From Candidatus Woesearchaeota archaeon (GTDB taxonomy: Archaea > Nanobdellota > Nanobdellia > Woesearchaeales > JAGLGH01): a stretch of DNA of 64,000 bases. Positions within the stretch are counted from its first letter, which is position 1, and every line of letters starts with the position of its first letter. Positions 26,225-49,693 of the stretch are shown here, in pieces. A program made the position numbers and the translations under genes. The notes under the pieces are model-generated. The model saw only the letters and a list, made by a program, of their open reading frames with translations. It had not been told where the DNA came from and made no database searches. The stretch is taken from positions 4,258 through 68,257 of the forward strand of contig DAOVBM010000002.1 in NCBI GenBank assembly GCA_030670545.1, in the 5' to 3' direction.

Positions 26225-26526
26225 AAGTAAAAAGTCAGATGCAAAGGAGCACAAGCATCTTCAAATCTTGGGATAGGTTATTAGAAGGCTCTGCTCCCCC
26301 GCAACTGGTTACGCTCAGTTGACACGCAATGTGGAGCATGAAGCTCCACTACGCGGCAATTAGGTTTTATTGAAAGCCGCGATGTGTGACCTTGAGGTCA
26401 CACCACCTTTTATCAAATTTTGTTAAAATTTGAGGGACAACCCCCAGCGACGAGCAAGATAAGGAAAAGGATTAAGTTTTGACTGATGATGCTGGTGCTC
26501 CTTGAATAGCAGACTTTTTACTTACG
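26225..26526 (+). repeat. Family-1 long-hairpin MITE-like element, copy A (with ~130-bp nested insertion)
   Basis: Termini GTAAGTAAAAAGTC...GACTTTTTACTTAC are inverted. Inner arms GGAGCACAAGCATCTTCAAA...TGATGATGCTGGTGCTCC are inverted. The insertion sits between CCCCCG and GGGACAACCCC. Confidence 0.7.
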
Positions 26527-26567
26527 TTTGATAGAAAACCTTAAATATTGTTTCTCAATCCAGATTA

Positions 26568-28412
26568 ATGATGAAAAAAGTCTTTCTGATTTGGTGCCTT
26601 ATAGCAATATTATTAATAATCCCTGTATCGCTTGCAGAATATGGCAGCCTTAAGCTTCTTGCTGTCCAGGAGAAAGGAGGAAATCTCTCAGGCAGCCTTG
26701 CAGACTTGCATCTGGAGATAAATCCAGGAAACGGAAGGGTGTTTATGGATACTTTTCCCCTGACAAAACTTGACACCCAGGTATCGACAAGGTTTGCAAA
26801 AGAGATTGCATGCAATTATCTTGACATTAATTGCGATAAGTATGACTTTTTTTATACCATCAGATCAAATTCCCCTATAATTGCAGGTCCTAGCGCTGGC
26901 GCAGCCATAACAGTGCTTACTATAAGCCTTCTTGGAGATATTGATATCTCTGAAGATGTTGCAATAACCGGCACAATCAACTCTGGAGGGATAATAGGCC
27001 CTGTAGGAGCTCTGCAACAGAAGATAGAGGCAGCAAGCAGGGATGGAATAAGGAAAGTGCTTATTCCTGTAGGAGAAAGATACTCTGCAAAGGATATCAC
27101 AGGCCTTAACAATCTCTCAGCAATTATAGAAACAGGCGCAGATGAGAACATCACTGCAAAAGATATAATACAAGGCAGGAAAGGCATTGACCTTATTGAA
27201 TTAGGGGAAGAGCTTGGCATAGTAGTCAGGGAAGTGTCAGATATTGAAAATGTTCTTTTTGAGTTCACAGGAGTATCTTATGGAAAAGATATAGGGAATA
27301 TATCAATTGACCCTCATTACAGTCTGGTCATGAGCCAGCTTGCGATAGAGTTATGCAGGAGAAGCGGTGAGTTCATGGACAAGATAACATCAGATAGAAC
27401 AGTTTCCCACAGCTTTGAAGAGAGTTATGAGAATATATATCAGACTGCATTAAATTTTACAGGAAAAGGGGATAAAGCATTTGAGCAGGAAAGGTTCTAT
27501 TCATCTGCAAGCTATTGTTTTGGCGCAAATGTAAAATTAGGCCATATTACATTATGGATACAGAATGAATCTGATACGCAGCTTACAGAAAGGATAAATG
27601 CGATTGAGACAGAGATTGAGGCATTTAAGAAAAAAGAGTATAAGACAATAACAGACCTGCAGGCATATATGGTAGTAGAAGAAAGGATAACAGATGCAAA
27701 AGATTTTCTTGAAGCAAGCAAAAAGGAACTAGCTATGGGAAACAGAGATCAGGCATTGTATAGTATTGCTTATGCTATAGAAAGAAAATTCAGCGCTTAT
27801 GCATGGAGCACTTTCATAACCGGAAAAGGAAAAGCATTCAGGCTGAGTAATGAGGATATGCGCAAGTCATGCCAAAAAAAGCTAAGTGAAGCTGAAGAAA
27901 GATACCAGTATGTCGCATTATTCCTGCCAAGCTATCTCTCTAAGATTAGGAAAGGCATTGATGCAGCATATTTGGATTTCAGTAATAATAATTCTGAGGC
28001 ATGTCTCTTCAAGGCATCAAAAGCAAAAGCTGAGATCAATGTAATATTGAATGTATTTGGTGTTGAAAAAGAAAATTTTGATAACCTTATTGAAAGAAAA
28101 CTTGATATTGTGGAAAAGACTATCATTAAACAGACCAGGAAGGGAATCTTTCCAATAGTCGGGTTTAGTTATTATGAATACGCTAGTGATCTGAAAGATA
28201 TTGATCAGTTTTCTTCATTGCTTTATATCGAATATGCGCTTGAGATGAGCAATCTTGACATATATTTTCCTGAAAAGTATGAGATAACATTCACTGATCA
28301 GGATAAGAGTGAGATAGGAATCTTTCTTATAGGACTGGGAGCAGGACTTCTGATTGCTGTCATAATCATGATAAGAGCAAAGAGGAAGCCGATATCAAAA
28401 AAGAAAAAATAG
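26568..28412 (+). CDS. Exported Lon-like serine peptidase (S16 family proteolytic domain) with C-terminal TM anchor
   Basis: Signal peptide. The GPSAGAAITV...K (QQKIEAASRDGIRKVLIP) Ser-Lys dyad region resembles the Lon protease domain. C-terminal TM plus KKKK tail. Confidence 0.55.
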   Translation: MMKKVFLIWCLIAILLIIPVSLAEYGSLKLLAVQEKGGNLSGSLADLHLEINPGNGRVFMDTFPLTKLDTQVSTRFAKEIACNYLDINCDKYDFFYTIRSNSPIIAGPSAGAAITVLTISLLGDIDISEDVAITGTINSGGIIGPVGALQQKIEAASRDGIRKVLIPVGERYSAKDITGLNNLSAIIETGADENITAKDIIQGRKGIDLIELGEELGIVVREVSDIENVLFEFTGVSYGKDIGNISIDPHYSLVMSQLAIELCRRSGEFMDKITSDRTVSHSFEESYENIYQTALNFTGKGDKAFEQERFYSSASYCFGANVKLGHITLWIQNESDTQLTERINAIETEIEAFKKKEYKTITDLQAYMVVEERITDAKDFLEASKKELAMGNRDQALYSIAYAIERKFSAYAWSTFITGKGKAFRLSNEDMRKSCQKKLSEAEERYQYVALFLPSYLSKIRKGIDAAYLDFSNNNSEACLFKASKAKAEINVILNVFGVEKENFDNLIERKLDIVEKTIIKQTRKGIFPIVGFSYYEYASDLKDIDQFSSLLYIEYALEMSNLDIYFPEKYEITFTDQDKSEIGIFLIGLGAGLLIAVIIMIRAKRKPISKKKK

Positions 28413-28585
28413 TAAGTCAAAAGTCAAGTGTAACGGAGCACAAGCATCTTCAAAACTTAGGATGGGTTATTAGAAGGCTCTGCTCCCCCGTAAGGGACAA
28501 CCCCCAGCGACGAGCAGAATAATGAAAAGGATTAAGTTTTGACTGATGATGCTGGTGCTCTTTGAATAGCAGACTTTTTACTTAC
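28411..28585 (+). repeat. Family-1 hairpin element, copy B (overlaps the TAG stop of the protease gene)
   Basis: ~90% identical to the other copies. Begins at the stop codon TAGTAAGTC. Confidence 0.75.
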
Positions 28586-28942
28586 AAAAAATAGAATGAT
28601 TTTTGAATAGATAATAAACCCAAGGAAACAATTCAGCAAGCTGAACCGTCCCCTTGGGAAAAAGAGGTGATTATGTTTTCTTTTTGAGTTTATGAATTAA
28701 AAACTCCTGCAAACAGCAAAACTCCTGTGATTTGCATGAGGAAAAGAGAGTATAGATTATGAATTGCCTCTTTTTTTGAAAATTAGACAATTAACCTCTT
28801 TTTTGTTATTACTTGAGAATGGTATACTTATATTTAAATCTTTCTATTTTGATAGTATTTTTGAGTAGTTACAGTTGGGGCGGCGGAAATATTCCGGATT
28901 TGAGTACATAACAAATATAAATCTCCTGCTCTTCTACAGGTC

Positions 28943-29980
28943 ATGCACAAAGATAATATAACTAATTCAGTAAGCAAGAAAAGAGCTATGCTGATATTTG
29001 TGTTAATCCTGGTAATATCACTTTGTTTTATCGAATATGCAAATTCCCACCCTGCTAACATTGCAGATAATCCATTACCTGAACAATGCCCCAATCCAGC
29101 AATATACTTTTGTCCAAGAGACAACTGCAGCCAGAATCTCGCATTAACTATAACCTCAGCAAACAATTCAGTGCACTGCGCATTCTTTGACATTGATTCA
29201 TCAGATGTTATTAATGCTCTGGCAAGGAAATCAATATATGCTGATGTAAAACTGGTTATTGATAATAATAATCAAGACAACAGGATAAAAGGTAATGTTA
29301 AGTACGACACTTCCAGACAATTGACACATAACAAATTCTGTGTAATTGACAGCATGATTGTATGGACAGGCTCATTCAATCCAACAGAAAGAGGCAGCAA
29401 CAAGAACAATAATAATGCAGTCCTTATTTATTCAAAACAGCTTGCAGCAAACTATGAAAAAGAGTTTGAAGAGTTGTGGATGGGTAGATTTGGGTCAGGC
29501 GAAAAAACAGAAATAACAAAAGTAAGAATAAACAATATAACGATATACAGCTATTTCTGCCCTGAAGACAGCTGTGCAGAAAAAGTTATTGAAGAGATAA
29601 GAGGCGCAAGAAAAAGCGTATATTTTATGACTTTTTCTTTTACGCATGAAGCTATTGCTGATTCTCTTCTTTTTCTTAATAAAAATATTGACATAAAAGG
29701 AATTTTTGAAAAGTCACAGGGGGGCAGCAAGTACTCACAATTTAAAAGGCTGGATGAATTTGGAATAGATGTAAAAAAAGATTCAAACCCATACAATATG
29801 CATCACAAGGTGTTTATCATTGACAACAATACTGTGATAACTGGCAGCTTTAATCCCACAAAGAATGGAGATGAGAGGAATGACGAGAATCTTCTGATAA
29901 TTAAAGATAAAGATATTGCAGAACAATATGTTGATGAGTTCTTTTATATCTGGAGTTTGACAGAATCAAATAGAAGTTAA
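28943..29980 (+). CDS. Secreted phospholipase D-like / HKD-motif (Nuc-type) nuclease or phosphodiesterase
   Basis: Two HxK(x4)D motifs: HNKFCVIDSMIVWTGSFNPT and HHKVFIIDNNTVITGSFNPT. Signal anchor. Confidence 0.7.
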   Translation: MHKDNITNSVSKKRAMLIFVLILVISLCFIEYANSHPANIADNPLPEQCPNPAIYFCPRDNCSQNLALTITSANNSVHCAFFDIDSSDVINALARKSIYADVKLVIDNNNQDNRIKGNVKYDTSRQLTHNKFCVIDSMIVWTGSFNPTERGSNKNNNNAVLIYSKQLAANYEKEFEELWMGRFGSGEKTEITKVRINNITIYSYFCPEDSCAEKVIEEIRGARKSVYFMTFSFTHEAIADSLLFLNKNIDIKGIFEKSQGGSKYSQFKRLDEFGIDVKKDSNPYNMHHKVFIIDNNTVITGSFNPTKNGDERNDENLLIIKDKDIAEQYVDEFFYIWSLTESNRS

Positions 29981-30033
29981 TATTTCTTTGGTCTTATCTC
30001 TTGTGTCTTTTTGCAATCTTCTATAGTTTGTAT

Positions 30034-30200
30034 GTAATAAGTCTTATATCATAGAGCAGTAGCATCTTCAAAACTTAAGATGTGATTTTGGAAGGCTCTG
30101 CTCCCCCGTAAGGGACAACCCCCTGCGACGAGCAGGATGTAAAAATAGAAGGAGTTTTGACCTGATGATGCTACTGCTCTAAGAATCGGAGACTTATTAC
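30034..30200 (+). repeat. Family-1 hairpin element, copy C (variant termini GTAATAAGTCT...AGACTTATTAC)
   Basis: Same core CTCTGCTCCCCCGTAAGGGACAACCCCC; terminal inverted repeats. Confidence 0.7.
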
Positions 30201-30203
30201 AAA

Positions 30204-30590
30204 CTATCGCTTATCTTCTTTCTCTTCTTCACTGGCTTCACGCCTGAGATAATATTCAATAAGCACTGCTTTTACTACAAGGAAAAACGAGAGGAATATG
30301 GCTGCTATCCTGAACGCATTCCTGGGATCTGCGCTTTTTCCAAATATGGACCCTATAAGGAATATAAAAAGCAAAAGGAGCATGAGATGTGTCTGCGCAT
30401 CTTTTGCGAAAACAGAAAAATTTTTTCTTACAATTGACTCAAAAAGATGGCTGTAGAAATAAAACAATATGAACGCTATTGCTACAATAGCCATGACACC
30501 GACCATGTCGCTGAGATAATACCTAAAGAGAAATGAGATAAGTATTATAAGCCCTGCAATGCTAAGCATATTGCTTGATACCTTGAACAT
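30204..30590 (-). CDS. Small integral membrane protein, unknown function
   Basis: Four hydrophobic segments; acidic C-terminal tail. Confidence 0.4.
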   Translation of the reverse strand: MFKVSSNMLSIAGLIILISFLFRYYLSDMVGVMAIVAIAFILFYFYSHLFESIVRKNFSVFAKDAQTHLMLLLLFIFLIGSIFGKSADPRNAFRIAAIFLSFFLVVKAVLIEYYLRREASEEEKEDKR

Positions 30591-30652
30591 GTTCCACCTC
30601 TTTTTATACCTTCTGGATTAGGTTATTAATAAATTTTGCCTTTTATTGATAG

Positions 30653-31114
30653 CTAAATATCTTCTTTTATCGGGATTGTAACTATTGTTGTCAATGTCTT
30701 TAGTATATCTTTGTTCTTCCTAAGATTTATTATATAATCATTGAATTCATTTATGCCTGAAAATTTCAGCTTGAGCAGAAGGTCATATTCTCCTGTTACC
30801 CCAAATGCCTCTTTGACATGATTATTTTTGAAAAGAGATGACTGTAGATCAGTAGCAGTATTCACAAACATGAAAACTATGAAATCTTCTCCGACAGCAG
30901 CATTATCCAGCTTGATAGTGAATTTCTTTATGGTTCCCTTATTCCTCAGTTCCTTCATTCTCTTGTGCACTGTAGAAGGTCTGATGCCAGTTGATTTAGC
31001 TATATCTCTTATTGGCATGCGGGAGTTTTCTTTGAGAATTTCTATTATCTTTTTGTCTTTTGCGTCTATTTTTGCGCAGGTATTTCCAGCAACTGCAGAT
31101 AGCTTTTTTGTCAT
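30653..31114 (-). CDS. Lrp/AsnC family transcriptional regulator
   Basis: HTH DKKIIEILKENSRMPIRDIAKSTGIRPSTVHKRMKEL followed by a RAM domain. Confidence 0.8.
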   Translation of the reverse strand: MTKKLSAVAGNTCAKIDAKDKKIIEILKENSRMPIRDIAKSTGIRPSTVHKRMKELRNKGTIKKFTIKLDNAAVGEDFIVFMFVNTATDLQSSLFKNNHVKEAFGVTGEYDLLLKLKFSGINEFNDYIINLRKNKDILKTLTTIVTIPIKEDI

Positions 31115-31236
31115 CTGCAGTTATAATTTCTCATATATTTATAAATATTTCTAATTTTGTGCAATTAAATCATAAAAAATGGGACAAATGGTATTATAAC
31201 ATTCTTAATCTATATAAATCATCTAACAATCCGTAT

Positions 31237-31627
31237 GTAATAAGTCTTATATAAAAGAGCAATAGCATCTTCAAATCTTGATGAGCGTAGCTCATTAAGA
31301 ACTTAGAGAGCTTTGCTCTCCAAGTACTTAAGATATGATTTTGGAAGGCTCTGCTCCCCCGCAACTGGTTACGCTCAGTTAATGCTGAGTAATCAGAGAT
31401 TACTGGCAACTTCGGCGGAGCTGAAGTCACGCAAGGTGGAGCATGAAGCTCCACTACGCGGCAATTAAGTCTTATTGAAAGCCGCGAAGTGTGACCTTGT
31501 GGTCACACCACCTTTTATCAAATTTTGCTAAAATTTGAGGGACAATCCCCTGCGACGAGCAGGATGTAAAAATAGAAGGAGTTTTGACCTGATGATGCTA
31601 CTGCTCTAAGAATCGGAGACTTATTAC
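31237..31627 (+). repeat. Family-1 hairpin element, copy D (two nested insertions, ~390 bp)
   Basis: Same termini as copy C. Carries the same inserted module as copy A plus an extra ~55-bp segment. The hairpins GTGGAGCatgaaGCTCCAC and GTGTGACCttgtGGTCACAC lie inside it. Confidence 0.7.
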
Positions 31628-31669
31628 ATACAACAATCCATTTTAAAATCAAACTAAACAGGTGGTATC

Positions 31670-32932
31670 ATGGACAAAGGAGACAATTATGAAGTAAAGG
31701 ACATAAGCCTTGCAGAGCAGGGAAAGATGAATCTTGAGATAGCAGAAAGCCATATGGGAGCTTTGCTTAAGATCAAAGAGAGATTTGAAAAAGAAAAGCC
31801 TTTTGAAGGTGTAAAGATTGGCTTGGCTCTTCACATCACAAAAGAGACTGGAATTCTTGTAAGGACATTGATTGCAGGAGGCGCGGAAGTCGCAATTACA
31901 GGCTGCAATCCGCTGTCAACACAGGATGATATTGCAGCAGCTCTTGCTGAAGAAGGTGTCAATGTATGGGGATACAAGGGAGAAAACAATGAGGATTATT
32001 ACAGGTACATCAATAATGTGATTGCATGCAGGCCGCATATCACAATAGATGACGGCTGTGACCTGGCCAGTGAGATTCATAAGAATCATAAAGACCTTAT
32101 CCCTGGGCTGATTGGAGGATGCGAAGAGACAACAACAGGCATCATCAGATTAAAAGCAATGGAAAAGGACAATGCGCTGAAATATCCGATAATAGCAGTC
32201 AATGACAACAAGACCAAGCATCTTGTCGACAATTATTTTGGAACAGGACAGAGCACTGTAGACGGCATAATCAGAGCATCCAATGTTCTGTTTGCAGGCA
32301 AGAATATTGTCGTTGCAGGATATGGTGACTGCGGCAAAGGATTTGCAATGAGGTGTAAGGGATTAGGGGGAAATGTCATTGTGACAGAAGTAGATAATTT
32401 CTGTGCATTGCAGGCAGCATATGACGGCTTCAGGGTTATGAAAATGGACGATGCAGCTCTTATTGGAGACATATTCTGCACATTGACAGGCAACAAGCAT
32501 GTCCTTAGGGTTGAGCATGTCAAAAAGATGAAAGATGGAACAATACTTGCAAATTCAGGCCATTTTGATATAGAGATTGATGTGAAAGGCATGAAAGATG
32601 CAGCATCATCTGTAAGAAGGGTAAGGCCTTTTCTTGATGAATATGCAATTGATGGGAAAAAGATATTTCTCTGTGGAGAGGGCAGACTGGTGAACTTATC
32701 AGCAGCAGAAGGACACCCCAGTGAAGTAATGTCAACATCATTCTGCGGTCAGGCAATGGCATGCGAATTCCTTGTAAGAAATAAAGGAAAATTAGAAAAC
32801 AAAGTGATCCAGCTTCCTAATGAGATTGATGACGAAATCGCAGCTTTACAGCTGAAAGCGATGGGAATTGGCATTGATGAACTGACAGCAGAGCAGGTTG
32901 AATATCTTAACAATTGGGAAGAAGGGACTTAA
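31670..32932 (+). CDS. ahcY: S-adenosyl-L-homocysteine hydrolase
   Basis: Highly conserved AdoHcyase sequence, NAD-binding GYGDCGKG. Confidence 0.9.
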   Translation: MDKGDNYEVKDISLAEQGKMNLEIAESHMGALLKIKERFEKEKPFEGVKIGLALHITKETGILVRTLIAGGAEVAITGCNPLSTQDDIAAALAEEGVNVWGYKGENNEDYYRYINNVIACRPHITIDDGCDLASEIHKNHKDLIPGLIGGCEETTTGIIRLKAMEKDNALKYPIIAVNDNKTKHLVDNYFGTGQSTVDGIIRASNVLFAGKNIVVAGYGDCGKGFAMRCKGLGGNVIVTEVDNFCALQAAYDGFRVMKMDDAALIGDIFCTLTGNKHVLRVEHVKKMKDGTILANSGHFDIEIDVKGMKDAASSVRRVRPFLDEYAIDGKKIFLCGEGRLVNLSAAEGHPSEVMSTSFCGQAMACEFLVRNKGKLENKVIQLPNEIDDEIAALQLKAMGIGIDELTAEQVEYLNNWEEGT

Positions 32933-33007
32933 AGTTTTGATTTTAACTTTTTATTATTTTTTTTGTATTCAGTTTAGAAAATAATATAATATCTATTAGA
33001 TACTATC

Positions 33008-33172
33008 ATTATCGAAAATTTCGCAAGAAATTTTATTGGGGTTTAATACCCCTCACTTCAGTGCGAAATTTTGGATTCCAAAAATTTGATAATCTATAAT
33101 GCAAATCCGTAATACCCCCATTTATGGTGGGGATAGGATTTGCTATCAATAAATTGTCAAATTTTTGTTATA
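33008..33172 (+). repeat. Family-2 structured repeat, copy 1
   Basis: ~90% identical to 49521-49688. Contains the palindrome CGAAAATTTCG and the hairpins GGGGTTTAATACCCC and CCCCATTTATGGTGGGG. Confidence 0.65.
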
Positions 33173-33185
33173 ATTAAATTTAGAA

Positions 33186-33851
33186 TTATACTACAGATTC
33201 AAAAGTTAATTCAATTTCTTTAGATTCTTTCTTAAGTATTTCAATAGCATCTTTTAATTTATCTTTAATAACCTTGCAGTCTTTGTTAGTTCTCTTTTTT
33301 AAAGCTTCTATGTTTTCACGATTAAAGGATTTTATTCCAATTTCAAGAAAATCATTCAGTTTGTCATTAAAATTTTCTACAGTCTTGAGTACTCTCTTCA
33401 TATTTTCAATTAAACCATGAATTACATATACTTCCTCTGCCTCTTCCTCTTTAAACTTTTTCTTAATATTATCTGGAGTTGCAGTTTTAATATCTACTAT
33501 AATTTTAGCAAATTCCTTTTTATTAGCTTTGGAAATATTATCTATGAAAGCAATCAAGTAATTAATCTCTGAAGCCATCTTAACTTTTGATAGCTCTTTT
33601 GATTTATTAATTAAATCTTTATTATAACCTAGCGGCTCAAGATCCAATAAATGATAAAAAGTTTCAAATCTTCCATACATTTCTTTTAATACTTCTTCTG
33701 ACTCAAAAAGCAAATCTCCAACTTTATCTATTCTACGCTTTGATATATTTTTTAATCTCTTAACAAATTTCTTTTTCTTTGATTCACTCAACCAGGCATC
33801 CAATGCCTCATGATCTCCGCTTAGACCTTTAATTAATTTTATTAGATTCAT
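33186..33851 (-). CDS. Hypothetical alpha-helical protein
   Basis: 221-aa ORF, no recognisable motifs. Confidence 0.4.
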   Translation of the reverse strand: MNLIKLIKGLSGDHEALDAWLSESKKKKFVKRLKNISKRRIDKVGDLLFESEEVLKEMYGRFETFYHLLDLEPLGYNKDLINKSKELSKVKMASEINYLIAFIDNISKANKKEFAKIIVDIKTATPDNIKKKFKEEEAEEVYVIHGLIENMKRVLKTVENFNDKLNDFLEIGIKSFNRENIEALKKRTNKDCKVIKDKLKDAIEILKKESKEIELTFESVV

Positions 33852-33899
33852 CTTTAAAATATAAATAATAGGAGATATATATAAAATGTTCTATAAGGG

Positions 33900-34072
33900 G
33901 TAAGTAAAAAGTAAGATGTCCTGAAGCACAAGCATCTTCAAAATTTAGGATAGGTTATTAGAAGGCTCTGCGTCCCCATAAGGGACAACCCCCCGCGACG
34001 AGCAGGATAAGGAAAAGGATTAAGTTTTGACTGATGATGCTGGTGCTCCTTTAATAGCAGACTTTTTACTTT
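33900..34072 (+). repeat. Family-1 hairpin element, copy E
   Basis: GTAAGTAAAAAGTAAGATG...CAGACTTTTTACTTTC termini; same core. Confidence 0.7.
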
Positions 34073-34105
34073 CTATAATGGCCAATAGTCCTGTGCTATC
34101 ATGTT

Positions 34106-37603: not shown

Positions 37604-37675
37604 TGTCTATCCCTTTATATGGTTATGAAATCAGATATATTTTTAGTTTATAAAACTTACTCTGCAAATCTTTGT

Positions 37676-38717: not shown

Positions 38718-39488
38718 GTGTGGATGAAAAAGATAATAATTATATTTGCTTTATGTATTGTTTTAGCAGTAGGCAATGTGATAGCTTTGTCTGTGTGGAA
38801 TACAGAGGAGAAATTAGTCACAGGAAGTGTTCTGAATAGAGTCCAGATAAATATAGATAATACAGGAACATGCGAAGCAAAAAGATATGTCTATTTTGGT
38901 TATGATTTTCCTATTTCAGGAATAGATTCTGGCCTATGCAGTGAATGCGATGGTTCTGGCAGCATGACTTCTGCTTCAGATGATTCTGGCTGCGGAATAA
39001 TAGACTGCGACGGTATGAATTATTATTTCACAGAAGGCAGTGCTTCTGCAATAGGAACAAATTATTGTAAACAAAAAGATTATGCTGACATAACTTCAAA
39101 CAGATGCGAAGGATTAAATGACTGCAAAGATGCAAACACAGCAGACTGCACATCTTATTCAGATTTAACTGCTGCTACATGCGGAACATGCAAATATGCA
39201 ACAGGCGCTTGTTCAAGCTGCACAAATTACGGTTCTGGAACCTCCTGTAGTTCAGGAATGGCATGCGATGGCAGTGGGAATTGCGTTGCAACAGGAGGAA
39301 CTTGGGTTTATACAGGGGCTTATCTTATTGGTGATTCAGGCCCACCTGGTTGTCCAGTTGGAACAACAGTAGGAGGGGTTTGTCCTACTCTTGGTGAAAA
39401 ATGTAATATAGGAGTAGTTGGTATGGGTCCTCCTACTATGGGTTTTCCTACTGGAACCCCAATCATTGGTATTGTAACATGTCAATAA
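38718..39488 (+). CDS. Cys-rich secreted protein (second copy of the small-partner family)
   Basis: Signal peptide, >25 Cys, immediately upstream of a PEF-CTERM protein. Confidence 0.55.
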   Translation: MWMKKIIIIFALCIVLAVGNVIALSVWNTEEKLVTGSVLNRVQINIDNTGTCEAKRYVYFGYDFPISGIDSGLCSECDGSGSMTSASDDSGCGIIDCDGMNYYFTEGSASAIGTNYCKQKDYADITSNRCEGLNDCKDANTADCTSYSDLTAATCGTCKYATGACSSCTNYGSGTSCSSGMACDGSGNCVATGGTWVYTGAYLIGDSGPPGCPVGTTVGGVCPTLGEKCNIGVVGMGPPTMGFPTGTPIIGIVTCQ

Positions 39489-39514
39489 AGTTTAAGCAAA
39501 TAACTACTTAAAAA

Positions 39515-42478
39515 ATGAAAAAAACAACAACAACAATCATAATAACTTTATTAACAGTTTTAATAACAAGCTCTGTCTCAGCATTAAACATAACGCTTTA
39601 CTACAATGAAACAACTGGGCTGTATGATGAGAGCGGGGATTATACATCATCTGCAGACAATTACGGTGGCTCGCCATTATACGCCTGCGTGATTGAATGG
39701 GAAGAAGATACTCCTTCAGGTACTGATATCACAATGCAGCTGAGGTCTGGCAATGCAGAGCCTTTGTCAGGAGACTTTATAGGGCCTGACGGAACCTCCG
39801 ACACTTATTATCAAACAAGCCCTTCTATCGCAAACTCAACGCATAATTCTAATACCTATATTCAATGGAAATCATTTTTAACTACAACAGATACATCAAT
39901 AACTCCAACATTATACAATGCAACTTATTGGTGTTATTCAACCTGTACTTCAGATTTAAATTGTAATGCAGGCTTATACTGCATCAGTAATGAATGCGTT
40001 CCGAACACTGCTCCTGAGATGGTAGGCATAACAGACAGCCCAGATCCAATCAAAGGCGGGACAAGCATCACAATCACTGCAAATGGAGTCACAGACCTCC
40101 AGGATGATACGCTTTATCTTTACTGTGGAACAACAACTACCCCTGATTCAGGAAATACTATCTGCGCAGGCGGAACAACATCAGATACAGGAGATCCTTA
40201 CAATCTTGACTGTACATTTCCTGTACCAACAGATGACACAACACATACAGTCTATTGCAGGCTTTATGATGGAACTGTCTACAGCGCTGTAAACTCAACA
40301 ACATATACAACAGACAGCACTCCTCCTGCAGCTGTTACAATCACAAGTTTAGATGGTGATATAGCATCACCTTACTGGGATACTTCAGACAATTCACAAA
40401 CAATAATCTACGCAGACAGGCCGGATTCAGGTATGTTATGCAGATGGTCAACAACTGATATACCATATTCCAGTATAAGCAGTTCTAATGATTGTACAAT
40501 GGGAGAGGATAGTACACAATGCAACCTAGGCAGCCTTTCCCAATCAGCCTCTTACACATACCACATATCTTGTTCTGATGCTGTTGGCAATGATCAATCA
40601 ACAGCCCAAAATACAGGTATCACATTCGGAGTTGACTGGACAGAACCCAGCACTTATGTAAGCGGCACAGGAAGCTATTATGTTCCAGGACATGAAGTCA
40701 TATTCCATGAAGAAGATAATATAGGCACACCTGCTACAATCCTTACATGGCATTGTACTTCTGACCTCGGCTGCACTCCTGTAATTGAAATTGACAATCT
40801 TGAGGATGTTACATTCACAGAAAGAGGAACTAATTATTTAAGATGGTACAGTAAAGATGCAGCAGGCAATGACCAGCCAGCACAGGGTGTAACTGTAGAA
40901 ATTAACAGCCTGCCTGTGATAACTGATGATGATATGTTCTCAGGTGTCGAGGGATCAGGTGATTTCACTGGACAAAAAGGCCAGAAAGCGCATTTCTACT
41001 GCAAAGGCACAGATTCAAACGGAGCAGTTGACGGCAATGCAGGATATTCTGCAAAGATATGGTTAAGAGTCTCCGGTTCTGGAACATGGGACAGGGTAAA
41101 TGGCGTTTCAATGACATGGGATTCAGCAAATAACAGATTTTTCTATAATTTAGTTTCACCTATCACTGACAGCTATAATACAAAATGGGATATGATGTGC
41201 GAGATTACTGATGATTTAAATGAAGGGGCAAATCATACAAAGAATAATGTATTTACAGTTGTAAATACCCCTCCAAATGTTGATGAGATATTTGTAGGCT
41301 ATCCAAATGCGCAAAAATTCGATAATCAGCGCTGGAAATGCGCAGTAGTTGATTATGATGACCAGCATTCAGGCAATGCTATGGAAGTAATATTCTCGCT
41401 GGCAGAAAGAGGTTATCTTATTTCGGGTCCCCTGCTTCTTGATAATGTTACAATGACATGGGAAAGCGGGGCTAATTATTATTATGATAGGATTGTGCTG
41501 GAAGATGGAGATACACATTATGATGCACAATGCCTGGCTTACGATGGAGTAGAGTATTCATCAATGCGCACAGAACTTGATGTTCCAGAACATATTGTAA
41601 GCAATGACTGGGACGGCGACGGAGTATCAGATTCAGCAGATAGCCTTGAAGGTACAGGAGCAGACCTTGACACAGCACTGAGTGTTACAATAAAAGTTGA
41701 CGGCATAGTCAACAATAGTCCGAGAGGCTCGCATACAGTTACATTCGAAGATAATGGTGTAGAATTTGTTAGGTTTACAAATGACTTTGATACAAACGAA
41801 CTTTTAACACCATGGATTATAGTTGATAGGATAGCAACAGGCGAAAAAGGAAGTGTGCTTGTTAGTGGACTTGAAGGGATATCAAAGACATTGCGTATTC
41901 CTAAGCTTCTTGGCTCTGGTTTAATATGTCTAAAGAATTCATCAGTAACAAGCATTAGTGAGATAAGCTCTGGGTGTGATGAACCAGACGAGATATTATT
42001 TGCCAACTGCGGTATTGGAGGGGAAACGATTGGAGGAATTACATGTATTGATAAGACCACATATTATGAAGTAAGTGGAGTGACCCATTCTGCAGTAATT
42101 GAATTTGGCAATGCAAGATTAGAGGTATGGTCAGAGGGTACATATTGGCAGCTTGATGATATATTCTTCTATGTCAACTACACAAATTCAAGTTCAGGTG
42201 CAGCAATAACAGGAGCTGATTGCAATATCTGGTTTGATGACACTGGATGGAATGATATGGCCTTTGATGGAACATTGCATAACTATAACCGGACTTTCAA
42301 CAGCGCAGGAGACAGGACATACAATGTAAGCTGTACACATGCAACTTATACAAATCTAACAGTTCAGGACAGCTTTACAATATCTCAAAGCGCTATCCCT
42401 GAGTTTTCAGTATTAACTCTTGGATTAGGGTTGATAGCTGTGTTGATTGGATTGGTAATAATCAGGAAAAGAAGATAG
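39515..42478 (+). CDS. Large PEF-CTERM cell-surface protein
   Basis: Signal peptide, many N-x-S/T sequons. C-terminal module YNRTFNSAGDRTYNVSCTHATYTNLTV...IPEFSVLTLGLGLIAVLIGLVIIRKRR. Confidence 0.75.
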   Translation: MKKTTTTIIITLLTVLITSSVSALNITLYYNETTGLYDESGDYTSSADNYGGSPLYACVIEWEEDTPSGTDITMQLRSGNAEPLSGDFIGPDGTSDTYYQTSPSIANSTHNSNTYIQWKSFLTTTDTSITPTLYNATYWCYSTCTSDLNCNAGLYCISNECVPNTAPEMVGITDSPDPIKGGTSITITANGVTDLQDDTLYLYCGTTTTPDSGNTICAGGTTSDTGDPYNLDCTFPVPTDDTTHTVYCRLYDGTVYSAVNSTTYTTDSTPPAAVTITSLDGDIASPYWDTSDNSQTIIYADRPDSGMLCRWSTTDIPYSSISSSNDCTMGEDSTQCNLGSLSQSASYTYHISCSDAVGNDQSTAQNTGITFGVDWTEPSTYVSGTGSYYVPGHEVIFHEEDNIGTPATILTWHCTSDLGCTPVIEIDNLEDVTFTERGTNYLRWYSKDAAGNDQPAQGVTVEINSLPVITDDDMFSGVEGSGDFTGQKGQKAHFYCKGTDSNGAVDGNAGYSAKIWLRVSGSGTWDRVNGVSMTWDSANNRFFYNLVSPITDSYNTKWDMMCEITDDLNEGANHTKNNVFTVVNTPPNVDEIFVGYPNAQKFDNQRWKCAVVDYDDQHSGNAMEVIFSLAERGYLISGPLLLDNVTMTWESGANYYYDRIVLEDGDTHYDAQCLAYDGVEYSSMRTELDVPEHIVSNDWDGDGVSDSADSLEGTGADLDTALSVTIKVDGIVNNSPRGSHTVTFEDNGVEFVRFTNDFDTNELLTPWIIVDRIATGEKGSVLVSGLEGISKTLRIPKLLGSGLICLKNSSVTSISEISSGCDEPDEILFANCGIGGETIGGITCIDKTTYYEVSGVTHSAVIEFGNARLEVWSEGTYWQLDDIFFYVNYTNSSSGAAITGADCNIWFDDTGWNDMAFDGTLHNYNRTFNSAGDRTYNVSCTHATYTNLTVQDSFTISQSAIPEFSVLTLGLGLIAVLIGLVIIRKRR

Positions 42479-42536
42479 ATTCCTGGTTTAAATATTAAAG
42501 AATAGTTATATAATGCAATAAATTGGTGATGGTTTT

Positions 42537-42875
42537 ATGGAACCAATACAGATAACAGGAATAGATGAGCTAAAGCCCAATGAACTTCCTCTTGCAAACA
42601 AACTTGTGAATGAATATTATGAAAAGATAAAGAGAGAGCTGAACAACATTACAACCCTTGCAGTGCATTTTAAGTGCTATGAGAAGGAGGGCAACAGAAG
42701 AAAATTCGCAATCCACGCAAAAGCCATAGCTCCAACACAGATATTTGCATCCACAAAGGCGCAGGATTGGGACCTTGCAAGGACAATGCATAAATGTTTC
42801 AAAGACCTCGAGAGACAGATAAGGCATAGATTGAAGACTGATGAGCAAAGGCCGAAACCATATATCCATAGATAG
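42537..42875 (+). CDS. Ribosome hibernation factor-like protein (HPF/RaiA, S30AE family fold)
   Basis: IQITGIDELKPNELPLANKLVNEYYEKIKR... and AKAIAPTQIFASTKAQDWDLARTMHKCFKDLERQIRHRLK align with HPF/YfiA ([40 protein letters not shown]). Confidence 0.5.
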   Translation: MEPIQITGIDELKPNELPLANKLVNEYYEKIKRELNNITTLAVHFKCYEKEGNRRKFAIHAKAIAPTQIFASTKAQDWDLARTMHKCFKDLERQIRHRLKTDEQRPKPYIHR

Positions 42876-42895
42876 AATTTTTTCTTAAACAAATC

Positions 42896-43060
42896 GTATG
42901 TAAACAGTCTGCTATTCAAGGAGCACCAGCATCATCCGGTCAAAACTCATTCTATTTTTACCTCCTGCTCGTCGCGAGGGGTCGCTCCATCCGGGAACGC
43001 AGAGCCTTCTAATAACCCATCCCAAGTTTTGAAGATGCTTGTGCTCTATGACCTCTGACT
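42896..43060 (-). repeat. Family-1 hairpin element, copy F (reverse orientation, variant core)
   Basis: Reverse complement carries GGAGCACAAGCATCTTCAAAACTTGGGATGGGTTATTAGAAGGCTCTGCGTTCCCGGATGG... Confidence 0.65.
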
Positions 43061-43115
43061 TTTTACATACAACAAATCAAAACTATTATAAATAATTCTA
43101 TAAATATATCAATGA

Positions 43116-43871
43116 ATGGAAGAGAAGGTATTTATCATTAATAAATCAGGAGAGAAATTAATTGGATTAAAAACCATCCCTTCAAAGAAGAAGATAAAAA
43201 ACAAAACCGCAGTTCTTGTGCATGGATTTGGCTTTTATAAAGAAGAAGATGGTATGTTTGATGATTTAGCAAAAATATTATCTGAACAAGAATATCTTGT
43301 TTATAGATTTGATTTTAGCGGCTGCGGAGAAAGTGAGGGTGATTTTATCAATGCAACTTTAACAAAATTAGTTTCTGATCTCAATGAAATAATCAATTAT
43401 GTAAAATCCGAATCAGATGTAGACGCTTCAAAGATTGTAATAATCAGCCAATCATTTGGAACATGCACAACAATCGCCCTTAATCCAGAGGCAAATTGCA
43501 TGGTTATGCTTGGCTCATTTGCGAATGCAAGAACAGTTTTGGCAGATAATTTTGGTGATGGATTCAATCCTCATGGAATTTCTGAAAAAAGAAGGCGTAA
43601 TGGAGCTTATCTTAGAATTAAAGAAACATTTTGGAATGATTTAAGCGATTATAAGATAGATAAATTGGTTAAAGAAATACATTGTCCTATCTTATTTATC
43701 CATGGGGACAAAGATCCAATTGTTTCTTTATCTGAGATGGAGATCCTTTATTCTAATGCAAATGAGCCAAAAACAAAAGTGATTATCAAGAATGCTGATC
43801 ATGGTATGAGACCAAAGAGAGAAGAGATGTATGATAACGTGATGGAGTGGCTTTCTGCGAATTTAGTATAA
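43116..43871 (+). CDS. Alpha/beta hydrolase fold protein
   Basis: VLVHGFG...nucleophile elbow ISQSFG...D..., HGM triad arrangement. Confidence 0.65.
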   Translation: MEEKVFIINKSGEKLIGLKTIPSKKKIKNKTAVLVHGFGFYKEEDGMFDDLAKILSEQEYLVYRFDFSGCGESEGDFINATLTKLVSDLNEIINYVKSESDVDASKIVIISQSFGTCTTIALNPEANCMVMLGSFANARTVLADNFGDGFNPHGISEKRRRNGAYLRIKETFWNDLSDYKIDKLVKEIHCPILFIHGDKDPIVSLSEMEILYSNANEPKTKVIIKNADHGMRPKREEMYDNVMEWLSANLV

Positions 43872-43972
43872 GCGGCATTCGACTGTTATCACAAGCAGAT
43901 TAATAGGTTTATAGACATTTTTGAGTGTTCATTATCGATATCTTTTTATAATTCAAAACACATACTTTTATT

Positions 43973-45151
43973 ATGGCCAAAAAGACCAAGAAGAATCCTT
44001 TTGCAAAGTCTGCTAAAAAAGAGCGTTTAAAGGATTTTGAGACTAGGAGAGAGAAGTCATCTACTAAAGATAAGATTGCTGAGCTTGAGAAAGAGCTTTC
44101 TACTACAAAATATAACAAAAGGACTCAGGGTTCAATCGGACTTCTCAAAGCAAAGATCGCCATGCTTCGGGAAAAAGAGACTAAGAGAAAAGGAGGCGGA
44201 AAAAAGGCTGAAGGGTATTCTGTAAGGAAGACTGGAGATGGAACTGTAATAATTGTCGGATTTCCCTCAGTCGGAAAGAGTACACTTCTCAATAATCTTA
44301 CAAACGCAGAATCTGAAGTAGCCCATTATGCATTTACTACCCTTTCTGTGATACCAGGTCTGCTTGAGCATAAGTATGCAAAGATACAGATTCTTGATGT
44401 TCCTGGAATTGTCGAGGGAGCAGCAGCCGGCACTGGCAGAGGCAGGGAAGTGCTTTCATGCGCTATGAGCGCAGAAATGGTCATGATGGTCGTTGATGTA
44501 TTCTATCCTGAGCATCTCAAGATACTTAAAAAAGAGGTATATGATACTAATATCAGGCTGAATCAGGAGAAGCCTGATGTCAGGATAATAAGAACTGCAA
44601 AGGGCGGTATAAATATAGGCGCAACAGTAAAGCTTACAAAAATTAGCAATGTAACTATCGCTAGGGTGCTCAGGGAATTCAAGATAGTGAATGCAGATAT
44701 CGTCATAAGAAGCGATATTGATGTTGACCAGCTCATAGACTGCATTGAAAAGAATAAGAAGTACATCCCAGGCATAATAGTGCTGAACAAGGTTGACCTG
44801 TGCTCTAAATATGAGCTTGATAAAGTCAAGAAACTAATCAAGCCTGACCTATGCATTTCAGCTGAGACAGGCTATAACCTTGATAAGCTCAAGGACATCA
44901 TATTTGACAGGATGAATTTTATGAGGGTGTATTGCAAGGAAGTAGGCAAGAAAGCAGACCTTGAAGAGCCACTTATCATTTTCAGAAATGCAACGCTCAA
45001 TGACATGTGCCTGAAATTGCATAAGGATTTTGCTGAAAAGTTCAGGTTTGCAAGAGTCTGGGGCAAGAGCGCAAAATTCGATGGTCAGATGCTGAGGAAA
45101 CTAGGTCATGTGCTTAAAGACGGAGATATTGTTGAATTGCATATCAGCTGA
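43973..45151 (+). CDS. DRG-family (Obg-like) GTPase with C-terminal TGS domain
   Basis: G1 GFPSVGKST, G2 FTT, G3 DVPG, NKVD. N-terminal basic region and TGS-like tail. Confidence 0.8.
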   Translation: MAKKTKKNPFAKSAKKERLKDFETRREKSSTKDKIAELEKELSTTKYNKRTQGSIGLLKAKIAMLREKETKRKGGGKKAEGYSVRKTGDGTVIIVGFPSVGKSTLLNNLTNAESEVAHYAFTTLSVIPGLLEHKYAKIQILDVPGIVEGAAAGTGRGREVLSCAMSAEMVMMVVDVFYPEHLKILKKEVYDTNIRLNQEKPDVRIIRTAKGGINIGATVKLTKISNVTIARVLREFKIVNADIVIRSDIDVDQLIDCIEKNKKYIPGIIVLNKVDLCSKYELDKVKKLIKPDLCISAETGYNLDKLKDIIFDRMNFMRVYCKEVGKKADLEEPLIIFRNATLNDMCLKLHKDFAEKFRFARVWGKSAKFDGQMLRKLGHVLKDGDIVELHIS

Positions 45152-46054
45152 TTACCCAATACTCTCCAAATAATCTTTCTTATATCTATAACCATGCAGC
45201 TTTGCAAGCTTTTTAATTGCCTTATCTATATTTGAGCCGTACTGCGCAGCACTCTTTTTCCTGTAAGCGAATACTTCTGGGATTCCCATATCCAGTGCTG
45301 CCTTTCTTATGGGCAGCTTGTTGTTTGTCTGTGATATCTTCCTGCTTCCAGGTATCTGCATTGCATGGATTATGACATCCCTGTCAAGCAGCGGAACGAG
45401 AAGATTGATTCCAAAATGCTTTGCAACAGCATAATCTCTTACAAAATCCCTTGCATACATTGACTTAAGCCCTTTCCAGCATTCCTTGTTGATGTCTTTT
45501 GCTTCTACATGGCGAAGGTATCCTGCAAATATTTCTTCAGAGCCCAATCCTGAGAACAGATACTTTACATTGTCTTTTTTCGCTCTCTCAAGCGCAGCAT
45601 ACACAACTGCAGCGACACCTACTTTTACAATATCTGTGCCAACAATCTTCACTACTTCCTTTATTATCTTCTCAATCTCTTTCAGGCCAAGCATAATCTC
45701 CTTGCACTCAAGCCCAAACTCTTCAGCAGCTTTTCTGGACCATGCAAGATCAGGGGATTCCCTTATATCTCCACTTTGAAATCCTACTGAATAGCAGACA
45801 GGCTTAACACCAAGCTTTTTGCAGATGACTGCAATAAGAGTAGAATCAACTCCTCCTGAGAACAATACCCCTATTTTCTGTTTCTTCTTCTTTACTTCTT
45901 TTGGTATTCTTTTCTTTACAGCCTCGATTATCTTTTCAAGGAGAATAACTGTACCTGTATCTGTCTTTATATCCTTAAGCCTTGATATATAGCTAATCCA
46001 CTCTTCTTCCTGCACAATCTTACCATTTATTGTTATCTTGGAAAATTCTGTCAT
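45152..46054 (-). CDS. PP-loop ATP pyrophosphatase, asparagine-synthase C-terminal-domain-like
   Basis: SGGVDS PP-loop motif. YLFSGLGSEEIFAGY resembles the AsnB LSGEGSDELFGGY motif. No glutaminase domain. Confidence 0.5.
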   Translation of the reverse strand: MTEFSKITINGKIVQEEEWISYISRLKDIKTDTGTVILLEKIIEAVKKRIPKEVKKKKQKIGVLFSGGVDSTLIAVICKKLGVKPVCYSVGFQSGDIRESPDLAWSRKAAEEFGLECKEIMLGLKEIEKIIKEVVKIVGTDIVKVGVAAVVYAALERAKKDNVKYLFSGLGSEEIFAGYLRHVEAKDINKECWKGLKSMYARDFVRDYAVAKHFGINLLVPLLDRDVIIHAMQIPGSRKISQTNNKLPIRKAALDMGIPEVFAYRKKSAAQYGSNIDKAIKKLAKLHGYRYKKDYLESIG

Positions 46055-46272
46055 ATTTGGATATAGTTCACTGATTATTTTTATATGTTTGTATGCATTA
46101 AGCAGCCAAGCCCACGTAATTCAAATAATTCCTAATTTTTTCTTTTCATTTGCGTATGCCAATGATGCCGTCGCGAGTACAATGGTACTCGCAGGCAAAG
46201 AACTGATAAGAATTGATTTGAAACGCAGAGAAATATTGAACAATTATTTTCATCATAAAAACTTTAAACAAT

Positions 46273-48096
46273 CTAACACTTGATCTTATGATGCACTATA
46301 AAGCATTCTTTTGAATCTACCACCTTTACTTCTGACTCAATCTCTTTTTTTATCTTTTCGCAACTTGTCTTTGGATTGAGCTTCTTGTCATATCCCACAG
46401 AAAGATATTCTATTTTCTCGAATGATTCATGCTCCCTCAGGTTTATCTTTGCCTTGCTGAGAGGTATCATCCTGCTCTGCGTTATGTCGGTTATTATATC
46501 TCCTTTGATCAAATCAAAAAGCAGCTTGAACTCACAGCCTTTATCTTTGCAGGTCAGCATGCATGCAGGGATAAGATATGTAGTTATGCTCTTTACAGGC
46601 TTTTCTGACATAAGCACAAGGTCTTTTATCGACGTCTTTGGCTTTATCACTGGCAGTATATCTTTTGATGCAAACTTCTTTGTCTCCTTCAGCACATCAA
46701 TAGTCTCTTCCTCTTCTCCAAGGATATCAATCGCTTCTCCACCATGCTTTGATCTCTTGGGCCTTATATTCACAAGAAGGGGCATGTCAACAATCCCTGT
46801 GATCATTGCTGTCCCTATAGGCAGGCTCTTGATATTGCTTTCAGACTCTGAAGATATCCCCTCAACTGATGATATGATTGCCTTAAGGTCATTTGGATTT
46901 GTGACTTTCAGGATTATCTGTGTATTGCACTGCGAGAGCACAGATTTCTCGACTCTTGCAGGCCTCTGCGTAATTATGCACATCCCAAGCCCAAACTTGC
47001 GGCCCTCGCTTGCTATTGTCCTGATGATGCTTGCGGATTTTGCATCCCCAAATCCCCTTTCAGGGCAGAAGTTGTGCGCTTCTTCAATGACTGCAAAAAA
47101 AGGCGGTATCCTGCCCCTTTTCCTTTCTTCAAAAAGGTCTTTCATCAGCTTGTAGACAATTATCTGCTGCATCTCAGGCTCTATCCCTCTCATGTTGATT
47201 ATAGAGCAGTTGCCTGGCTGTATCAGTTCATTATATTGCGTATAATCTGAAGAGAACAGCTCAAGCTTGTCAAGATAGTCTATGACATTGATAAGGTTCC
47301 ACTTTGCATTATTCTCCTCGGTTTCAAGCTCAAGCAGCAGCCCTGTGATTGTCACAGGATTAAGGTTCTTGAGCGCAGAATACAGCACAGCCATCTGGTT
47401 TGATGTCAGCTTGCCAGGCATGAGGTGGATAAGCTCCTGGCTTGTCATCTGATCATTTAGCTTCAGCGGAATTGATTCATTGTTTATGTTTATATCTCCA
47501 TATTCCCTAATCTGTCCTGCATAGCTCTTGGCTGTTATGCCAAACTTTTCCATCCTCTCTATGTCTTTCTTATTGTCATTCTTCTGTTTTAATGCAGAGT
47601 ACTCTCCATGGGGGTCTATTATAAGCAGAGGAACTTTCTTCTCGAGAATCTCTTCTATCAGCACTGAGGCCATGTATGATTTTCCTGCTCCAGTTTTTGC
47701 GATTATTGATACATGCTTTGTGAGAAGCTTTTTCAGGTCAAGCCTTATCATTATGTCCTTAGAGTCAAGTTTTCCTATATAAGCTCCATTCCTGTTTGTT
47801 TCAAGAGCAAGCACACCTTTTATTAGTTTGTCTTCAGCTTTCAGTACTTCTGAACCAGAAGCAAAAGGAATTCTCATCTGCCTTACTTTCTTATCTTTGT
47901 CAACATAGCCTATCACATTGCAGAGAGCTATAGTTTGGTTCTTATCAGAAATAAGCTCTATTATCTGACCAAGCACAAACTCATAATTCTTATGATACAC
48001 CTGCACATAATCAAACTTTCTTGCATCATGGTCTACTGCAAACCTGAAACTGGTTGTTGTAATCCTTCCTGTAATCTTGCCAAAAATCATAGACAT
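46273..48096 (-). CDS. HerA/FtsK-superfamily ATPase (DUF87-type) with extra Cys-containing C-terminal domain
   Basis: N-terminal barrel, Walker A IIAKTGAGKSY, DPHGEY, Walker B LLIIDEAH-like block (FFAVIEEAHNF). No NurA/Mre11/Rad50 neighbours. Confidence 0.65.
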   Translation of the reverse strand: MSMIFGKITGRITTTSFRFAVDHDARKFDYVQVYHKNYEFVLGQIIELISDKNQTIALCNVIGYVDKDKKVRQMRIPFASGSEVLKAEDKLIKGVLALETNRNGAYIGKLDSKDIMIRLDLKKLLTKHVSIIAKTGAGKSYMASVLIEEILEKKVPLLIIDPHGEYSALKQKNDNKKDIERMEKFGITAKSYAGQIREYGDININNESIPLKLNDQMTSQELIHLMPGKLTSNQMAVLYSALKNLNPVTITGLLLELETEENNAKWNLINVIDYLDKLELFSSDYTQYNELIQPGNCSIINMRGIEPEMQQIIVYKLMKDLFEERKRGRIPPFFAVIEEAHNFCPERGFGDAKSASIIRTIASEGRKFGLGMCIITQRPARVEKSVLSQCNTQIILKVTNPNDLKAIISSVEGISSESESNIKSLPIGTAMITGIVDMPLLVNIRPKRSKHGGEAIDILGEEEETIDVLKETKKFASKDILPVIKPKTSIKDLVLMSEKPVKSITTYLIPACMLTCKDKGCEFKLLFDLIKGDIITDITQSRMIPLSKAKINLREHESFEKIEYLSVGYDKKLNPKTSCEKIKKEIESEVKVVDSKECFIVHHKIKC

Positions 48097-48139
48097 AAGA
48101 AAGTGTTGAATGTTTATATAAGTTGCTGTTTATGGTATG

Positions 48140-48235
48140 TAATAATCATATGTAAAAGAGCAGTAGCATCTTCAAAACTTAAGATAGGTTATTCGAGGGC
48201 TCTGCGTTCCCGGATGGGACAACCCATGTCATTAA
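48140..48235 (+). repeat. Family-1 hairpin element, truncated copy G (5' half only)
   Basis: Matches the family from GTAATAATCA...GGGACAACCC, then diverges. Confidence 0.55.
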
Positions 48236-48528: not shown

Positions 48529-48550
48529 CCATGACATCTTAAAGACTCAT

Positions 48551-49688: not shown

Positions 49689-49693
49689 TGATT

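Follow-up and report, generated by a model that had tools for sequence, protein, structure and literature searches.

Probable miniature transposons with a conserved, asymmetric folded core in a Woesearchaeal genome and other DPANN archaea

Seven copies of a repeat family between housekeeping genes

The window analyzed in this study, i.e., a 64-kb stretch of contig DAOVBM010000002.1 of a Candidatus Woesearchaeota archaeon, contains a repeat family with seven copies, which lie between 26.2 and 48.2 kb; the coordinates of the copies are given as positions in the window. The neighboring genes are ordinary archaeal housekeeping genes, which encode HisRS, a Lon-like protease, a PLD-like protein, an AsnC regulator, AdoHcy hydrolase, SMC, RNase HII, a DRG GTPase, and HerA, and this indicates that the copies sit in a chromosome, between genes. 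All copies are intergenic, occur in either orientation, and often lie within tens of bases of the ends of open reading frames (ORFs). The elements are 131 to 399 nt in size and contain no ORF. A preliminary description of this DNA, made from the letters alone, had placed the seven copies within a few bases of the limits reported here, and the terminal inverted repeats, inner arms, and GC-rich core that it described are all present. A search with the covariance model of the family found no further copies elsewhere in the 64 kb.

Copy A (26223-26525, plus strand) is a long-form element with the termini GTAAGTAAAAAGTC and GACTTTTTACTTAC, and copy B (28412-28585, plus strand) is the canonical long form of 174 nt. 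Copy C (30030-30204, plus strand) is a long form with a second arm subfamily (GTATGTAATAAGTC), to which the arms of copy D (31233-31631, plus strand, 399 nt) also belong. Copies E (33900-34073, plus strand) and F (42896-43070, minus strand) are long forms as well, the latter having been ended 10 nt early in the preliminary description. Copy G (48135-48225, plus strand) comprises the left terminus and the 5' half of the core and breaks within a conserved run of cytosines (C-run), after ...GGGACAACCC.

The terminal inverted repeats of intact copies start with GTAA or GTAT, and on both sides of these copies there is an 8-bp target-site duplication that had previously been missed. The two flanks are identical at all eight positions for copy A (GTTTGATA, 26215-26222 and 26526-26533), copy B (AAAAAATA, 28404-28411 and 28586-28593), copy D (AACAATCC, 31225-31232 and 31632-31639), and copy F (AACAAATC, 42888-42895 and 43071-43078). 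Seven of the eight positions agree for copy E (TATAAGGG at 33892-33899 and TATAATGG at 34074-34081), and the duplication of copy C (TATAGTTT and TATCGCTT) has decayed to six of eight. Among 43 nonredundant elements from other genomes and metagenomes, the flanks are perfect (8/8) in 19 and match at seven or more positions in 25, compared with 0.06% and 0.11%, respectively, in controls that combined left and right flanks from different elements. Each genome carries several dispersed copies, i.e., seven in the window and three to five loci per metagenome-assembled genome (MAG) even with a strict search pattern. The combination of inverted termini, a fixed 8-bp duplication, small size, the lack of an ORF, and many dispersed copies identifies the family as a miniature inverted-repeat transposable element (MITE), and this classification is well supported. 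The repeats are thus very probably nonautonomous DNA transposons of DPANN archaea, in agreement with the earlier notion of a MITE-like mobile structured element, since terminal repeats and 8-bp duplications are found together with a hairpin that covaries over approximately 150 relatives. The duplication is the footprint of a transposase that cuts with an 8-bp stagger, and mobilization is presumably provided in trans by a DDE-type transposase encoded elsewhere, although none was found in the loci or viral contigs searched.

The effect of insertion on a coding sequence can be followed at copy B. As had been described, this copy starts at the TAG stop codon of the Lon-like protease ORF (26568-28412), and its first base completes the stop; i.e., the stop consists of the TA of the duplicated target and the first G of copy B, and the original TAG is restored at the other end of the element. 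A different outcome was observed in L004, one of the loci fetched from relatives (840 kb in all, designated by L numbers), in which a 436-aa amidohydrolase-like ORF (L004 1801-3111) runs into a MITE and ends inside it (...VTEHKHLQNLG, followed by the stop). The insertion in L004 replaced the original C-terminus and stop, whereas in the window copy B rebuilds the TAG of the protease gene. Homologues of the Lon-like protease adjoin an element of the family in three genomes (window 26568-28412, L010 2778-5060, and L013 1174-3072). The orientation of the element differs among them, and the protease is the sole recurring neighbor that involves the window; this adjacency is probably due to chance.

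Copy G had been regarded as truncated; instead, the terminal repeat of an insertion sequence (IS) of the IS4 family interrupts its core. The left terminal repeat of this IS (ATGTCATTAAGTTAAGG, 17 nt, 48226-48242, plus strand) is its only remnant in the window. The same junction is found in L004, where the IS is complete (about 1.76 kb, L004 1-1761), lies in the C-run of the MITE core, and encodes a 432-aa DDE_Tnp_1 (IS4-family) transposase, and a third MITE/IS junction is present in L148. The junction with the terminal repeat shows copy G to be a MITE that was hit by an IS, most of which was lost later. The transposase has 809 homologues in metagenomes of the DPANN and candidate phyla radiation type, some of which are annotated as Nanoarchaeota, Aenigmarchaeota, or Patescibacteria. 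This IS has the ends (C)AATGTCATTAAGTTAAGG, and the duplications of related copies are 11 bp long and fall in C- or G-rich targets; the enzyme was rejected as the partner of the MITEs because the ends differ and the duplications are 11 bp rather than 8 bp.

Distribution and architectures of the family

The family is not confined to the genome of the window. An exact-pattern scan of species-representative genomes recovered 20 loci from about nine MAGs, several loci in each, with the labels Nanoarchaeota, Woesearchaeota, or Nanoarchaeia, plus two labeled Methanosarcinales. A metagenome scan found at least 120 contigs with the family, many of them from groundwater, and the covariance model gave 84 + 66 = 150 matches among the loci listed. 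The family was not found in viral contigs or, by blastn, in plasmid and phage records. The search of Rfam that the preliminary description had proposed, made here with Rfam 15, yielded no family: over the window there were no matches at gathering thresholds, and at permissive thresholds single elements gave only chance-level matches (E values of 2 to 5). A tRNA and tmRNA search of the sequence found nothing, and a full-text literature search with sequence strings of the family returned nothing relevant. In a census of MITEs (PMC11602168), the MITE density of one Woesearchaeal genome is given as very high, and this family is not described there. To judge from Rfam and the literature that could be searched, a MITE family of many DPANN lineages with a covariation-supported asymmetric core is undescribed.

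One core of approximately 110 nt is common to at least three architectures with different termini, the starts of which are GTATGTGCATAGC..., GTAAGTAAAAAGTC..., and GTAATACTTCAG.... In the short form (approximately 131 to 135 nt), the outer helix itself serves as the terminal repeat (GTATGTGCATAGCATC or GTATTTGTTTAGCATC) and starts with GTAT. The long form (approximately 167 to 178 nt), which is the type found in the window, has an extra outer stem ending in GTAAGTAAAAAGTC, GTATGTAATAAGTC, or GTATGTAGAAAGTC and starts with GTAA. In the dimer form (approximately 290 nt), two cores are placed head to head within the outer repeats GTAATACTTCAG, which start with GTAA, and the 8-bp duplications are TTTACGAT, TTTATTTC, and AAACCACC. 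Elements of this form were observed at L097 3459-3752, L124 1908-2204, and L130 768-1060, as well as in L096 and L140. Each consists of a canonical core and a diverged "B-type" core, in which CUGACAU...UUGUCAG replaces CUGCG...CGCRACG, with one pair of outer repeats and one 8-bp duplication. Owing to the head-to-head arrangement, each DNA strand of a dimer bears one sense core.

At L003 3076-3395, on a contig that is syntenic with 14-20 kb of the window, an element separates two genes whose counterparts in the window are spaced by only 2 nt. A 15-bp direct repeat (TGGATGAAGCCCATG), into which the start codon of the downstream gene falls, flanks this element, which does not have the usual GTAT termini. 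The MAG from which L003 originates is labeled Methanosarcinales, yet in content it resembles the window.

Fold of the core and its possible role

Single copies fold into long rods that are far more stable than shuffled sequence, with z-scores of -5.7 (plus strand) and -6.3 (minus strand) for copy B, -8.3 for copy A, and -10.6 for copy D. RNAalifold, run on a MAFFT alignment of 18 copies, gave helices P1 to P6, which are the same helices as those of the model. The order of the elements along the rod is P2 (GCAUC/GAUGC), a conserved asymmetric loop, P3, a 10x10-nt bubble, P4, an AC bulge, P5, and P6, of which P6 is a short hairpin with an expansion-tolerant loop and is followed downstream by the conserved C-run. 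Covariation was counted on 80 distinct metagenome copies. Standard pairs occupy 94.4% of the cells, compared with 33 to 47% when the partners are slid by one to three columns, and both sides have changed in 28 of the 33 pairs; none of 500 shuffles matched the observed values. Pairing is thus conserved by compensatory change across relatives. The search pattern fixed parts of P2, P5, and P6, and the strongest covariation is located in the helices free of the pattern, i.e., P1, P4, and most of P3 (at one position of P4, for example, GC is found in 34 copies, UA in 29, and CG in 16). The pairing is also strand specific, with G-U or U-G in 195 cells and A-C or C-A in 42.

The internal loop between P3 and P4 consists of two strands of 17 to 18 nt that are nearly constant in length and free in sequence. 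The same motif (UNGA, 10 nt, GAWR) is found in the same 5'-to-3' sense on both strands of the loop, and the two occurrences may form tandem sheared G-A pairs that bound the 10x10 bubble; an identical motif in the same sense on both strands fits tandem G-A pairs and is unlike a DNA palindrome. The strands of the bubble pair with each other no better than do strands from different elements (p = 0.41). A further contact is suggested by a three-way covariation between the closing pair of P6 (columns 61:128) and column 140 in the C-run: among 72 unique cores, 29 have C:G:C at these columns and 24 have U:A:U, and the complementarity between columns 128 and 140 is 89.6%, compared with 71.8% in shuffles (0 of 500 reached the observed value). 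The third base is identical to the Watson-Crick pyrimidine, and the C-run, which is parallel to the purine strand, leads directly into P5. This arrangement fits Y.R-Y base triples, but an alternative pairing or hairpin may also account for the covariation. For the loop between P2 and P3, a hammerhead reading (CUGAUGA) was rejected since the motif is not conserved (CCUUAU and CCUGAG variants occur), as was a kink-turn (K-turn) reading, in which the partner strand has no GA and the motif is likewise not conserved.

In copy A, a multihairpin expansion of 132 nt (26302-26433, plus strand) occupies the apical loop of P6 in place of the UAA of copy B. The apical module of copy D (31362-31538, plus strand) consists of the module of copy A and about 46 additional nucleotides, inserted at about 31381-31427 (plus strand). 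Copy D has a second insert of 50 nt with two hairpins in the 5' arm (31280-31329, plus strand), i.e., in the 5' strand of the bubble, so that the further insertion noticed in this copy is real and is in fact two inserts. The module of approximately 130 nt had correctly been recognized at an identical core site in A and D, where the shared part is 94.6% identical. It had been taken for a nested insertion at a preferred site. A second small mobile element that inserted site-specifically in the core would account for a 132-nt module of such identity at one position in two copies with arms of different subfamilies, and L020, from another genome, begins with the same module junction. On the other hand, the modules have neither duplications nor inverted ends of their own, and apart from the cut start of L020 the module was found nowhere else in the window or in the 840 kb of loci, in which no free-standing form was seen either. 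The same apical loop is filled by unrelated expansions in other lineages (L003, L010/L018, and L076). Since the arms of A and D are from different subfamilies, the module may also have been exchanged between copies by recombination of the apical part, which explains the common module equally well. We consider nested insertion improbable and read the extra sequences of A and D as expansions of a tolerant apical loop.

The stability of both folded strands, the intergenic position of every copy, often tens of bases from ORF ends, and the long-form ends, which yield a hairpin followed by U5 on either strand, would also be expected of host-domesticated intergenic palindromes of the REP/BIME or ERIC kind, which act as bidirectional terminators or stabilizers of mRNA ends and in which the fold is a mere stable hairpin. 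A generic hairpin, however, leaves the invariant unpaired nucleotides, the asymmetric loop, the covariation of the C-run, and the asymmetry between G-U and A-C pairs unexplained. Moreover, the short forms lack the T-runs, and 8-bp duplications, which these elements have, are not left by REP and REPIN elements that RAYT mobilizes. Domestication of this kind therefore appears quite unlikely.

The core may be the working part of a new mobile system of DPANN archaea, which a putative transposase would need to move the element; we regard this as possible rather than probable. The core would act as an element-encoded RNA (cofactor, guide, or ribozyme) or as a strand-specific folded-DNA signal, and its features would include a triple helix of the pyrimidine motif and a bubble of 10 + 10 nt that looks programmable and is enclosed by two G-A motifs. 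The fold would be a cis-requirement for mobilization, presented to the transposition machinery either as a folded single strand or as an RNA derived from the element. G-T wobbles, G-A pairs, and C+.G-C and T.A-T triples form in DNA too, and hence the fold fits RNA and single-stranded DNA alike.

Alternatively, the core may be a functional noncoding RNA gene that several unrelated MITE shells carry as cargo, which we regard as possible but not probable. Such an RNA could be a ribonucleoprotein scaffold, a ribozyme, or a guide-like RNA in which the 10 + 10-nt bubble confers specificity, and it could arise by read-through expression and be trimmed down to the protected fold in the manner of archaeal C/D box small RNAs (sRNAs). 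It would explain why the same core is found within at least three terminal-repeat architectures, why pairing is strand specific, with G-U tolerated and A-C not, and why the internal loop has an RNA-style two-fold pseudo-symmetry with GA motifs on both strands. A bubble constant in length and free in sequence, a three-way covariation typical of a tertiary contact, and expansions tolerated at the apical loop only are also in its favor. The orientation of the elements relative to neighboring genes, however, is random (24 sense-tandem, 20 antisense-tandem, 18 divergent, and 12 convergent), i.e., there is no bias in favor of the sense strand, and 20 of the 74 copies are readable from their neighbors only in antisense. 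Nor is there a promoter signal or a match in Rfam, and inspection of the sequence revealed no canonical K-turn or C/D box spacing. With regard to a guide function, the strands of the bubble are not enriched in matches to the flanking DNA, and the loops match neither flanks nor termini. The G-T wobbles, G-A pairs, and C+.G-C triples, as noted above, occur in single-stranded DNA as well. The earlier suggestion of a multicopy structured sRNA family may still hold for the core; it cannot stand alone as an account of the repeats, the copies of which have clearly transposed.

Orientation relative to the local strand skew is random as well (34:34). Given that a nonautonomous element is selected only via its own spread, the random orientation and the lack of a promoter signal favor a role of the fold in mobilization, and we tentatively prefer a cis-requirement for mobilization over a gene that serves the host.

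Several observations weigh against a mobile element whose core takes part in its own movement. Neither the 840 kb of loci nor the viral contigs revealed an autonomous partner that has the termini of the family: matches to the terminal repeats only were at chance level in the loci, viral contigs gave zero or chance matches, and a scan for GTAW ends with an 8-bp duplication 0.45 to 6 kb apart returned nothing credible. There is no transcription signal, since TATA-like boxes are about as common upstream of the sense strand (26 of 118) as upstream of the antisense strand (22 of 118). The distance from terminus to core varies with the architecture, which argues that the core is not the terminal binding site of the transposase. 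Because the pattern used to draw the metagenome sample came from the copies in the window, the sequence conservation of the core is overstated. The large alignments were fitted to the model. In addition, no pair of empty and filled sites was obtained, as exact-protein look-ups gave only short contigs ending at the repeats. In L129, the 3.3 kb between two flanking elements contain ordinary kinase genes. No neighboring gene family recurs among the loci, the best cluster being present in 6 of about 140.

The mobile DNA and noncoding RNAs of DPANN archaea, whose genomes are tiny, are very little known. In this group, the family is abundant over many lineages, and its interior acts like a selected folded molecule, not like junk. 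The core, for which covariation supports a model, is a well-defined candidate for a new structured motif of RNA or DNA, and the family offers a test of whether small nonautonomous transposons depend on or ferry structured nucleic acid. The copies also explain assembly breaks in DPANN genomes, in which short-read contigs stop at them, and they can be used as a marker for genome dynamics in uncultured members of the group.

Other repeats in the window and comparison with known systems

Two further repeats are located near the MITEs. The second repeat (approximately 160 nt, at 33013-33171 and 49528-49686) is 98% identical between its copies and contains the GC-rich hairpins GGGGTTTAATACCCC and CCCCCATTTATGGTGGGG. 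Rfam gave no match to it at gathering thresholds, and it lacks obvious inverted ends. A Logan contig of the same organism is broken within this repeat, and a weak match of 47 nt is found in L014. The third repeat (approximately 150 to 160 nt, at 48376-48535 and 49693-49841) is present as direct copies that are 88% identical and flank a 289-aa ORF (48551-49420, minus strand) without a Pfam match, and its second copy abuts the second repeat at 49528-49686. The stretches 6600-17000 and 21128-24628 of the window contain a run of lysine/glutamate-rich low-complexity coding repeats, with a 12-nt periodicity around 9650-9830, and a glycine-rich protein of 1166 aa (Gly_rich_2, MopE-like motif). Farther downstream, at 54.9-61.1 kb, there are Fic, Bro-N, and toxin-like (ParE/YoeB-like) genes, which suggests an integrated or defense-type region.

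Among known mobile elements, the beginning of the terminal repeats recalls the IS66/ISBst12 group. The terminal repeats of IS66 (e.g., GTAAGCGTCC...) begin with GTAA, and the duplications of the IS66 family are 8 to 9 bp long; the long form of the present family begins with GTAAGTAA and has 8-bp duplications. The short forms, in contrast, start with GTAT, and the likeness ends after the first four to five bases. No IS66-type transposase was seen near any copy, and an IS66/ISBst12-like mobilizing enzyme is only a lead.

The family resembles REP/BIME/REPIN and ERIC sequences in that they are abundant, intergenic, imperfect palindromes that fold into hairpins. REPINs, however, are moved by HUH enzymes (RAYT) without target duplications, whereas the present elements have 8-bp duplications and a more elaborate, asymmetric fold. 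Membership in the REP/REPIN class was rejected on account of these duplications and of the lack of a recurrent neighboring gene. An integron attC site was likewise rejected: UCAAAAC/GUUUUGA is unlike the R''/L''...L'/R' boxes (RYYYAAC / GTTRRRY), and the flanking genes are housekeeping genes in both orientations, unlike promoterless one-way cassettes.

Archaeal box C/D sRNAs are similar in having two G-A-based motifs around two unpaired variable strands of fixed length, as well as promiscuous gene positions. The spacing in the present family is 10 nt, not 12 nt, and the element is much larger, with extra helices. Identity with a box C/D sRNA was rejected, as RUGAUGA/CUGA boxes in register are lacking, the 3-nt bulge of a K-turn is absent, and the geometry is 2+2, not 3+0. 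A conserved folded nucleic acid within a mobile element is also known from the bridge RNA of IS110, the omega-RNA of IscB/TnpB (HEARO), and the 5' untranslated region of IS200, and the internal loops of the family, which are free in sequence and fixed in length, recall the loops of bridge RNA. Those RNAs, however, are encoded beside a protein, in elements without inverted ends and 8-bp duplications, whereas here there is no linked protein and the loops match neither flanks nor termini.

In organization, the family resembles prokaryotic MITEs such as Correia/NEMIS of Neisseria and SM1-SM4 of Sulfolobus, which are likewise small, noncoding, multicopy, and intergenic, with terminal inverted repeats, duplications of fixed length, and no transposase of their own. 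In contrast to these, the interior of the present elements is not a decaying remnant of an IS; it is a core of approximately 110 nt that is kept by compensatory change in many DPANN lineages, is common to shells with different termini, and combines strand-specific pairing with conserved unpaired nucleotides.

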